64,000 bases of DNA from an uncultured Rhodospirillaceae bacterium (GCA_903901915.1 CAIUSV010000065.1:432-64431); one strand, 5' to 3'. Counted from the stretch's first letter, positions 13,165-15,273 are shown. Notes: a model not told the origin generated them from the letters alone. Program-made: numbers and translations.

Positions 13165-13893
13165 TCAAGCCTCCTGGGAAGACCGGCCCCGGAACCCCAT
13201 CGCGACCACATAGGTCTCGGCCGAACCCTGGCGGCTGGCCGGCGGCTTGGCGTGGCGGACGCTGGCGAAATTCGTCTTCAGCAGATCCAGCAAGGTCTTT
13301 TCGGTCCCGCCCTGGAATACCTTGGCGACAAAGGTACCGCCGGGGGTCAGCACCTCCAGGGCGAAGTCCAGCGCCACCTCGACCAAGCCGATGATGCGCA
13401 GGTGGTCGGTGGCGGGATGGCCGGTGGTGGGCGCCGCCATATCGGACAGCACCACGTCGGCGGGGCCGCCCAGCGCCTCCTTCAGCCGATCGGGGGCGTC
13501 GTCGGCGAGAAAGTCGCCCTGCAAGGTGATGGCGCCGGGGACCGGGTCCCATTCCAGGATATCGATGCCGACCACCGCCCCATTCTTGCCCCCGACCCGC
13601 TTCACCGCCACCTGAGTCCAACCGCCCGGTGCGGCACCGAGATCGACCACTTTGGCGCCGGCCTTCAGGAAATGGAAACGATCGTCCAGCTGGATCAGCT
13701 TGAAGGCGGCGCGCGACCGCCAACCCAGGCGCTTGGCCTCTTGGACATAGGGGTCGTTGAGCTGGCGTTGCAGCCACAGCGTCGACGACAGCTTGCGGCG
13801 CTTGGCGGTCTTGACCCTGACGGTCAATTGGCGCGAACCGCCCGGCGCCGACGAGCCGGTGGCGCGGTTGCCGCCGCCCTTCTTGTTGCTCAT
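13165..13893 (-). CDS. rlmE: 23S rRNA U2552 2'-O-methyltransferase
   Basis: [52 protein letters not shown]. Confidence 0.96.
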
Positions 13894-14129
13894 GGCCCAG
13901 CCCCCAGGCGCCGGGCGGTCGCTCCGCTCCCTGGGCTCCTCCGCTGACGCTCCGGGTCGCTCCCTGCGGGCCATGGCCCGCCCGGGCCTAAGGGCAACGC
14001 TCCCGCGCTCGGCTTCGCCTCGCTCATGGTCCAGCCCTCAGGTGCCGGGCGGTCGCTCCGCTCCCTGGGCTCCTCCGCTGACGCTCCGGGTCGCTCAACG
14101 CTCCCGCGCTCGGCTTCGCCTCGCTCATG
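13890..14129 (-). repeat. Composite repeat: 72-bp module A (13891-13962, 14025-14096; 3 mismatches) and 34-bp module B (13995-14028, 14096-14129; identical)
   Basis: Direct comparison of the sequence between the ppx stop and the rlmE start. Confidence 0.92.
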
Positions 14130-15114
14130 CTCCCCTCGCCTGACGGCCGTCGTCGCGCATCATGCCCAGCAACACGCCTTCGCGCACCCCGCGATCGGCG
14201 ACCCGGAGGCGGCCCAGCGGCCACAATCGGCACAGTGCCTCGAGAATGGCGCAGCCCGCCACCACCAGATCGGCACGTTCGGCCCCGATGCAGGGATGGG
14301 CGGCACGCTCGGCCGGGCTCATGGCGGCAAGACGGCGGGTGACGGCGGCGATATCGGCGAAGCCCAGTTCCAGCCCATCCACCTTCGAGCGGTCATAGCG
14401 CTCCAGCCCAAGATGCAGCGCCCCCAGGGTCGTCACCGTCCCCGAGGTCCCCAGCATCTGCACCAGATTACCGGTCATCAGCGAGCCGATGGTATGCAGG
14501 CTCTCGAACGGCCGGAAGGCGCGGCCGATCTGCTCCACCACCCCGGCGTAACCGGAATTGGACGCCAGTTCCGCCGCCCACTGCTCGGCCAGCGTGACCA
14601 CCCCGGTCGGAATCGACTGCACCCCCATCACCGTCTGACCGACGGGCGAATTGCGCACCCACACCAGTTCCGTCGAACCGCCGCCGATATCGAACACCAG
14701 CGCCCAGGGAACCAGCGGGTCCAGCAGCGAGGCACAGCCGGCCAGCGCCAGGCTGGCCTCCTCGCGCGAGGTGATGATGTCGGGCCGTAGGCCGGTGCGC
14801 TCGGTGATGCGGGCGGTGAACGCGGCGCCATTGGCGGCACGGCGGCAAGCCTCGGTGGCGACCAGACGAACCCGGCCCACCCGGTTGCGCTCCAGCTTCT
14901 CGGCACAGACGTCCAGCGCGTCGAGGGTGCGGGCCATCGCCGCCTCGGACAGCGAACCGGTGGCGCCCAGCCCCTCGCCCAGGCGGGTAACCCGCGAAAA
15001 CGCGTCGATCACCTTGAAACCGCGCGGCGTCGGGCGAGCCACCAGCATCCGGCAGTTATTGGTGCCGAGATCGAGGGCGGCATAAAGGGTTTCGGCGGAC
15101 GTGGCGACGCTCAA
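14125..15114 (-). CDS. ppx: Ppx/GppA family phosphatase (start uncertain; ORF open to 15231)
   Basis: YAALDLGTNNCRML, ATEACRRA, FDIGGGSTE, GTSGTVTT, RADLVVAG, DRGVREG. Confidence 0.92.
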   Translation of the reverse strand: MSVATSAETLYAALDLGTNNCRMLVARPTPRGFKVIDAFSRVTRLGEGLGATGSLSEAAMARTLDALDVCAEKLERNRVGRVRLVATEACRRAANGAAFTARITERTGLRPDIITSREEASLALAGCASLLDPLVPWALVFDIGGGSTELVWVRNSPVGQTVMGVQSIPTGVVTLAEQWAAELASNSGYAGVVEQIGRAFRPFESLHTIGSLMTGNLVQMLGTSGTVTTLGALHLGLERYDRSKVDGLELGFADIAAVTRRLAAMSPAERAAHPCIGAERADLVVAGCAILEALCRLWPLGRLRVADRGVREGVLLGMMRDDGRQARGA

Positions 15115-15273
15115 AGTCTGCTCTCTGACACCAGGAACGGTTGGGCGGGAGGGAAGGCGGCGGATGTTACCCCCATTGCCGCCGGGAAGGAAGCGTCGTG
15201 GCGTCAAGCCCCGGTCACCGCCGATCGGCACCGCGACAGGCGATCCACCACCGCGGCCGCTGGCGTCGGAGCG

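Follow-up and report, generated by a model that had tools for sequence, protein, structure and literature searches.

A mosaic hairpin repeat on ATGA start codons between ppx and rlmE of a Magnetospirillum-like bacterium, and its probable role as a ribosome relay

The ppx-rlmE junction and the anatomy of the repeat

The window analysed here is a stretch of 64,000 nucleotides from an uncultured bacterium, whose RlmE protein places it among Magnetospirillum/Paramagnetospirillum (88% identity to P. kuznetsovii). On the minus strand of this window, the 235 bases that lead from ppx to rlmE consist of two copies of a hairpin repeat of about 100 bases, with the following features:

14125..15231, minus: gene for a Ppx/GppA-family phosphatase, the upstream gene (open reading frame, 5' start unrefined; Pfam PF02541, E 7.5e-44)
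14127-14125, minus: TGA of ppx, overlapping the first ATG of the element (from the sequence)
14125..14128, minus: junction 1, ATGA, stop of ppx and start of mini-ORF 1 (sequence and chain walk)
14028..14128, minus: repeat unit 1, 101 nt (3n-1) (nhmmer 56.4 bits; covariance model 84.6 bits)
14096..14128, minus: 5' module of unit 1, 33 nt, beginning ATGAGCGAGG (exact second copy at 13995-14027)
14087..14108, minus: hairpin 1 of unit 1, columns 17-38 of alignment A1 (consensus fold and pair counts)
14040..14074, minus: hairpin 2 of unit 1, an outer helix together with an inner stem that is variable and capped by GGA(G), columns 53-88 of A1 (consensus fold and pair counts)
14035..14039, minus: Shine-Dalgarno-like GAGGG borne by unit 1, with the next ATG 7 nt on (invariant columns G86-G90)
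14024..14027, minus: junction 2, ATGA, stop of mini-ORF 1 and start of mini-ORF 2 (sequence and chain walk)
13894..14027, minus: repeat unit 2, 134 nt (3n-1) (sequence, profile match and chain walk)
13962..13994, minus: extra 33-nt module in the hairpin 1 loop of unit 2 (16-nt palindrome centred on CCATGG)
13890..13893, minus: junction 3, ATGA, stop of mini-ORF 2 and start of rlmE (sequence and chain walk)
13165..13893, minus: rlmE/ftsJ, the downstream gene, 242 aa from the ATG at 13893 (Pfam PF01728, FtsJ/RlmE, E 1.2e-56)

The 3' end of ppx reads GGGGAGCATGA and is followed by the 101-nt unit, an ATGA, the 134-nt unit, a further ATGA and rlmE (ATGAGCAACAAG...). An initial annotation of this DNA had described the gap as a chain of mini-ORFs coupled by ATGA overlaps, and the whole chain proves correct to the base: the TGA of ppx overlaps an ATG at 14128 that opens a frame of 34 aa (mini-ORF 1, 14128..14024, minus), the TGA of which overlaps the ATG at 14027 of a second frame of 45 aa (mini-ORF 2, 14027..13890, minus), and this in turn ends in a TGA overlapping the ATG of rlmE at 13893 on the same strand. 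Both peptides are as quoted there. The two modules said to be common to the mini-ORFs are also real, as repeat and pattern searches confirm, comprising a 5' module of 33-38 nt with 100/97% identity and a 3' module of 73-84 nt with 92-96% identity, for which the expectation from shuffles of the window is 0 matches.

A native Shine-Dalgarno motif, GAGGGGAG, is situated inside ppx just 5' of junction 1. Within the ATGA-type subfamily of the repeat, the 5' module seen in unit 1 serves as the head throughout the genus, and the copies of the relatives G009 and G031 begin with it as well. Hairpin 1 of unit 1 has the stem GGGAGC/GCGACC with a tandem G.A/A.G mismatch, which is present in both stems of the window copy. 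Unit 2 corresponds to unit 1 with the addition of the palindrome-bearing module, which is found at the same place in the copies of contigs C45 and C77; its length of 33 nt is a multiple of three and the frame of unit 2 is hence kept. A search of the locus against Rfam (E <= 1) returned 0 matches, and a scan for promoters and terminators returned no such site on the strand of the element.

Ahead of its start codon, the frame of rlmE continues without a stop into unit 2 as far as the ATG at 13974 in the CCATGG palindrome (13893-13974, minus), and a call of a 269-aa RlmE with 27 repeat-encoded residues would thus be possible. The orthologues, which display similar short Gly/Lys-rich N-termini directly after the ppx stop, favour the start at 13893. 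We also observed an 18-nt inverted repeat, 83% complementary, between unit 1 (14084-14101) and the 3' coding end of ppx (14191-14208), which is probably a chance pairing in GC-rich sequence.

An alignment of 20 canonical units (A1) reveals a common plan, in which a variable head (ATGAGCGA ... GAGCGCGG) is followed by hairpin 1, with a stem of 6-8 bp and a GTTGA-type loop, a conserved linker (CCGGAGCG.AGCGGAGGAGCC), and hairpin 2, where an outer helix bears an inner stem that is highly variable yet complementary and is capped by a GGAG loop. The unit is completed by CCCGGCG..TGAGGG, a spacer of 5-9 nt and ATGA. All 20 units carry the GAGGG Shine-Dalgarno motif unchanged, at a distance of 5-9 nt from the terminal ATG; the element therefore brings its own Shine-Dalgarno motif, which is a refinement of the first reading. 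A search of the locus for inverted repeats detected no terminal inverted repeats at the unit ends, and these are non-complementary in the alignment.

Both hairpins were recovered by RNAalifold from the 20-unit alignment. Over the full structure, paired cells amount to 93%, as against 79% in shuffles and 33-48% when the partners are slid, and double-change cells number 47 where 17 are expected, with none of 500 shuffles reaching the observed score. Compensatory changes are found at 8 pairs, and the pairs of the hairpin 2 inner stem change on both sides in 4-7 of the 20 copies. G-U pairs, which two of the pairs show in 6 and 5 copies, are confined to the gene-sense strand and would be A-C mismatches on the other, implying a structure formed by the mRNA strand or by the DNA strand of the same sense. 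The RNA of the window displays no extra stability over shuffled sequence (z = -0.22), so that the case for the structure is made by covariation only.

Placement on start codons and maintenance of an open frame

A BLAST search with the unit against the home genome (4.10 Mb in 93 contigs, 65.5% GC, 99.9% complete) matched about 20 loci, and an iterated nhmmer profile identified 40 units at 31 loci. The units are 32 to 143 nt long, with a mode of 98-104, and form arrays of 2 to 4 or more. For the analysis of their placement, the flanking genes were called crudely, by an open frame of 240-300 nt along with high third-position GC, and the chain was then walked from the upstream stop. At 21 of the 23 assessable canonical loci of the home genome, the next long ORF opens on an ATGA that is no more than a few bases away from the element, compared with a background of about 35% of Shine-Dalgarno-preceded ATG starts that carry A at +4 in the same genome (binomial P ~2e-8, overstated by the kinship of the copies). 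At 17 of the 23 assessable canonical loci the ATG of the element overlaps the upstream TGA, where a fraction of about 0.23 is expected with any ATGA start (P ~3e-7, which kinship likewise overstates). As the copies share descent, these counts are non-independent, and part of the frame pattern is inherited rather than re-selected. Empty ATGA overlaps in the home genome number about 302.

Both flanking genes are on the strand of the element at nearly all canonical loci, and the same is true of the relatives. The exceptions to the overlap, with an ordinary spaced stop upstream, are about six canonical loci (C89, C79:41421, C88:28104, C88:85695, C49:27832 and C68). Searches with the repeat place further copies, in the home genome and in relatives, at ATGA junctions, in gene orientation, with 3n-1 lengths and no in-frame stop; this dispersal and the ATGA ends exclude the outcomes that would have overturned the initial interpretation, namely a one-off duplication, an assembly artefact, or insertion with no preference for ATGA or frame. 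The idea that the element targets ATGA holds up in part: the distribution, with 21 of 23 downstream starts being ATGA, speaks for it, but the common denominator is the downstream start, and about a quarter of the canonical copies follow a spaced stop. Active targeting of ATGA, rather than mere survival there, would be one way to account for this distribution.

Every in-operon insert of the home genome is free of stops and either forms a perfect chain from ATGA to ATGA or is fused in frame with a neighbouring gene. The mini-ORFs comprise 11, 25, 31, 33, 34, 35, 43, 45, 48 or 72 codons, amounting to ten length classes that are all 3n-1 (32-215 nt), and a random link of such size would have a chance of about 14% of being in frame and free of stops. 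Selection for a frame that stays open at 3n-1 is clearly visible here, and the ten length classes are more independent evidence than the above P values. Thus, contig C28 carries the chain ATGA-34 aa-ATGA-34 aa-ATGA-265 aa, C66 the chain ATGA-35-35-35-..., C49 ATGA-33-ATGA-586, and C77 ATGA-48-ATGA-348. At the C45 locus two units are read through, with the inner ATG being ACG, to give ATGA-72-ATGA-201; an array of which C79 and C49 each hold a part at their ends has ATA in place of the inner ATG, and its units of 99 nt let a single frame continue to the final ATGA.

Comparable chains are seen in the complete genomes of three relatives (G009, G011 and G031), where copies with the same head give ATGA-34, -36, -37, -42 or -43 aa-ATGA-gene or in-frame fusions, mostly at loci other than those of the home genome. 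The same chains recur in three further genera (G034, G035 and G049). In G038 and G074, one orthologous copy is interrupted by an in-frame TAG once 16 codons have been read, indicating that the stop-free rule is not absolute.

The nucleotide core, and not the encoded peptide, is what the copies have in common. The linker is read as CCG GAG CGT in the window unit and as CCC GGA GCG in the C28 unit, and while two conserved internal TGAs share one frame that is never used, individual copies read either of the other two. A conserved core that is read in different frames implies that the peptide is not conserved; conservation instead concerns openness, length class, ends and base-pairing, and not amino acids. 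A Pfam search with both mini-ORF peptides of the window found no match.

Where a junction codon has been lost, the repeat becomes part of a protein. At the murE-murF junction (C49:31807-31898, L184) the terminal ATG is lost, and the ATG of the element, which overlaps the murE stop, heads a 497-aa MurF, of which about 33 N-terminal residues are repeat-encoded and the ligase domain begins at residue 60. The same dcw region has two more copies at other junctions (C49:27832 and C49:35103). Between the genes for a Fur-family regulator and an ABC ATPase (C54:3093-3176, L185) the first ATGA is mutated to ACGA, and the regulator reads through the unit, yielding a protein of 193 aa with a FUR domain that ends at residue 149 and a stop on the ATGA of the ABC ATPase gene, whose first codons (AGCGAGGCGAAGCCGA) are those of the repeat head. 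In G009, a gene of the rluB type lacks an ATG of its own and is fused to the repeat, which supplies the N-terminus of the RluB-type protein.

Dispersal, empty sites and turnover in relatives

The repeat is present in all 18 genomes of the same genus that we sampled, and the matches to a covariance model (R1) number 44, 31 and 55 in the complete genomes of three relatives. With one genome sampled per species, R1 has matches in 47 of 61 genomes of the family, distributed over 19 of 26 genera, with a maximum of 62 per genome. In 12 other genera of the order that were searched, no repeat was found beyond flanking coding sequence.

Comparison of the ppx-rlmE junction between species recovered the empty site that the initial annotation had anticipated. 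A bare ATGA is found in L001, L004, L011, L014-16, L019, L020, L030 and L082, and a TGATG overlap in L083, L084 and L086-L088, among others. G006 and G012 have a short form of 44 nt, which consists of the head and the 3' module and is again 3n-1. The junction therefore holds 0 units, the short form or 2 units depending on the species, with the double unit found in none of the relatives compared.

The GATase-rluB junction, which we compared in 14 genomes (L113-L126), is an empty ATGA in six species and takes six different filled forms in G000, G001, G006, G009, G012 and G014. These range from a tail-only form of 38 nt to two units of another mosaic class, with the G009 state being the aforementioned fusion; common to all is the 3' module, in which CCCGGCG, two variable bases and TGAGGG are followed by an A-rich spacer and ATGA. 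The coexistence of six different filled states with empty species suggests that this junction is an insertion hot spot with rapid turnover. A third locus, that of C52, is a bare ATGA in G009. Empty ATGA junctions are thus found at three loci in relatives, and the filled sites have ATGA at both ends.

The end stretch that is duplicated at filled sites is ATGAGC at the window locus (4-6 nt). Longer stretches are found at C54 (16 nt), C52 (18 nt) and C88:22004 (27 nt), the last of them being similar to the codons with which the gene natively begins in empty relatives. A target-site duplication of fixed length was ruled out by the spread from 4-6 nt at the window locus to 16-27 nt at C54, C52 and C88. 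Flanking duplications of such unequal length (4 to 27 nt) lead us to guess that the repeat spreads by microhomology-guided copying or recombination at gene starts of the ATGAGC/ATGACC type, a process that they fit better than a fixed staggered cut.

The ATGA form is accompanied by other forms of the repeat. In the home genome, mosaic sister classes were observed at C12:1-110, C28:62230-62340, C19:72078-72119, C19:70388-70438 and C77:12790-12841. These share hairpin 2 and the CCCGGCG..TGAGGG tail and have different heads, such as a GCGCGGCTTATGCCGCGG hairpin; they sit after stop codons in ordinary spacers, where they are uncoupled, and some of them adjoin terminator-like hairpins. In distant genera (G076, G036, G064 and G053) the core of hairpins 1 and 2 is kept, the head is a different hairpin, the tail is devoid of ATGA and the copies are intergenic. 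In G076 and G036 (L164-L173), this two-hairpin core is very abundant, with up to 62 matches; a further hairpin precedes it on the 5' side, its ends are neither ATG nor ATGA, and the copies lie after stop codons. The lifestyle of the core in the distant genera is a conventional REP-like one. Going by its distribution, the ATGA relay form looks like a sublineage of a wider REP/BIME-like family.

A proposed ribosome relay, rival explanations and comparable repeats

Given the observed anatomy, dispersal, empty sites, frame and length constraint, hairpin covariation and absence of peptide conservation, we posit that the ppx-rlmE spacer is probably a two-unit array of a non-autonomous mosaic hairpin repeat, which settles on ATGA starts and relays ribosomes as a chain of mini-ORFs. 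The inference originally made for the repeat is thereby supported, with the refinements given above. By this proposal, the head ATG would take over the native ribosome-binding site and overlap the upstream TGA, a stop-free 3n-1 frame would cross the two GC-rich hairpins, and the terminal ATGA after GAGGG would recreate an overlap of stop and start with whichever unit or gene follows. A ribosome that completes ppx could restart on mini-ORF 1 and melt the hairpins while translating, terminate at ATGA, restart on mini-ORF 2 and be handed on to rlmE; the Shine-Dalgarno motif of the element may also permit fresh initiation, and the mini-ORF peptide would be a throw-away product. The small frame is thus probably kept so that ribosomes pass between the genes of the operon, with translation and coupling of the mini-ORFs being predicted from the sequence. 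Under such a relay an insertion would be nearly neutral for the expression of the operon, and we propose that copies persist for this reason. As a counterpoint, the Shine-Dalgarno motif of the element itself could make the relay unnecessary.

The features that the repeat shares with REP/BIME elements of Enterobacteria and Pseudomonas (including REPINs with their RAYTs), i.e. GC-rich hairpins kept by compensatory change, mosaic modules, clusters and frequent tandem arrays, and an in-operon presence able to affect mRNA, raise the question of whether it is a purely structural repeat. Its hairpins would then act at the RNA or DNA level by stabilizing the upstream mRNA, setting operon ratios or binding a protein, and the open frames would be a by-product of GC-rich sequence and descent. 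The sister classes and the distant-genus copies, which are intergenic, uncoupled and without ATG or ATGA ends, are consistent with this. However, descent and base composition are hard put to explain ten independent length classes that are all 3n-1 and stop-free, ATGA at both ends far above background, or an orientation that is always that of the genes, with arrays that are direct, unlike the inverted pairs of REP/BIME. Furthermore, we saw no conserved GTAG head in the Magnetospirillum element, its home genome has no RAYT/Y1 transposase, and its design appears to be one for translation (ATG ... 3n-1 ... ATGA), replacing a zero-length junction and not a spacer after a stop. We therefore regard a purely structural role as improbable, although the two readings could be compatible. 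A Y1 tyrosine transposase is also at the heart of another explanation, by which the repeat is an IS200/IS605-type derivative (PATE) or a REPIN, whose two subterminal hairpins are recognized by the enzyme for insertion 3' of ATGA. This would explain the choice of ATGA mechanistically, and it agrees with the two subterminal hairpins, the fixed tetranucleotide at the left flank and right end, the absence of terminal inverted repeats, and a strand-specific structure with G-U (G-T) pairs that would suit a single-strand mechanism. Nevertheless, a search for Y1_Tnp (PF01797) had 0 matches in the 99.9%-complete home genome, while control genomes were matched, leading us to drop RAYT/PATE as the leading mechanism; the variation of the flanking duplications from 4 to 27 nt, and the common partial or short forms and tandem arrays, are also not what precise single-strand transposition predicts. 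We consider this explanation distinctly unlikely.

That the mini-ORFs encode functional micro-proteins, for instance small regulators made in step with the operon, would accord with the large number of copies that combine a start codon with a ribosome-binding site and a frame free of stops; it is largely refuted by the reading of the conserved core in two frames, which yields unrelated peptides, and it fits poorly with lengths of 11 to 72 codons, conservation that follows base-pairing and not codons, and the lack of a Pfam match, and we deem it very improbable. An even smaller chance attaches to the ppx-rlmE array being an artefact of assembly or a single tandem duplication confined to this site, as might be suspected from two adjacent near-identical units and from several contigs ending in such arrays: the 31 home loci, the many copies in complete single-contig relatives and the short forms at the same junction in two other species run counter to it, and the dispersal of the family refutes it. 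The relay of ribosomes hence remains our preferred reading of the array.

Among the repeats known from other bacteria, the mycobacterial interspersed repetitive units or MIRUs (Supply et al. 1997, Mol Microbiol 26:991; PMC12548453, PMC3184786) are of 40-100 bp and present in 40-50 copies, are co-transcribed, display tetranucleotide direct repeats at filled sites, and contain GC-rich internal inverted repeats and ORFs that overlap adjacent genes (PMC3184786). Their relay behaviour at stop/start junctions has already been described (PMC12548453, PMC3184786). Set beside the MIRUs by description, the Magnetospirillum repeat has every MIRU feature that was compared: short units in tens of copies, often in tandem; location between the genes of one operon, in the orientation of these genes; GC-rich internal inverted repeats; a small ORF that begins in overlap with the upstream stop codon and ends in overlap with the downstream start codon (-4 spacing, ATGA); and a tetranucleotide direct repeat on comparison of filled with empty sites. 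In both cases an insertion would pass with little effect on expression. It differs from MIRUs in its host phylum, the Alphaproteobacteria (in the family containing Magnetospirillum), in its conserved Shine-Dalgarno motif, in being visibly mosaic, with swappable heads and nested modules, and in being a sublineage of a wider repeat that in other genera is an ordinary intergenic REP-like one. As the host belongs to another phylum, we claim from these features that it works like a MIRU, and not that it is a member of the MIRU family. A literature search found no paper describing such a repeat in Magnetospirillum, nor a relevant "MIRU-like" one, and we accordingly present it as an apparently undescribed new family of MIRU-like kind in Alphaproteobacteria.

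Rickettsia palindromic elements (RPEs) and other repeats are known to be fused in frame to genes (PMC3184786). Like the RPEs, the Magnetospirillum element is a hairpin repeat that stays open and can join a protein, as at the MurF N-terminus, the C-terminus of the Fur-family regulator and the N-terminus of the RluB-type protein of G009. However, RPEs insert inside coding sequences, whereas this element is normally a separate mini-ORF between genes, for which fusion is exceptional and secondary, occurring on loss of a junction ATG or TGA. With MITEs it has in common a small size, a non-autonomous and dispersed nature and a short direct repeat in filled versus empty sites; it is unlike them in having no terminal inverted repeats, a strict orientation to the genes and a flanking duplication of variable length.

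As a more speculative extension, which we consider possible but doubtful, the ATGA relay could be an evolved sublineage of an old, family-wide REP-like repeat that gained an ATG head and an SD-ATGA tail and thereby entered zero-length junctions, in convergence with the actinobacterial MIRUs. This would suggest that start-codon-seeking relay repeats form a general class across phyla and have an insertion mechanism in common, possibly microhomology copying at gene starts. If true, such repeats would feed new N- and C-termini to proteins, such as MurF, the Fur-family regulator and the RluB-type protein, and might tune expression ratios within operons.

Overlapping ATGA junctions have no spare base and should hence be closed to mobile DNA. 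The present family illustrates, outside Actinobacteria, how they may be settled by an element that carries a start, a frame, a ribosome-binding site and a stop. Genetic tools exist for Magnetospirillum, making it a convenient host for testing ribosome relay by such ORFs; for MIRUs too, the transmission of ribosomes by relay ORFs is only inferred. The mini-ORFs and in-frame extensions can mislead gene callers, as with an rlmE that is 27 codons too long or the repeat-encoded ends of MurF and the Fur-family protein. The arrays are candidate VNTR markers for the typing of Magnetospirillum strains, and they break short-read assemblies: six contigs of the home genome (C14, C19, C38, C49, C66 and C79) end inside arrays of 99-104-nt units in at least 3-4 copies, and the repeat is thus a main cause of the breaks in that assembly.
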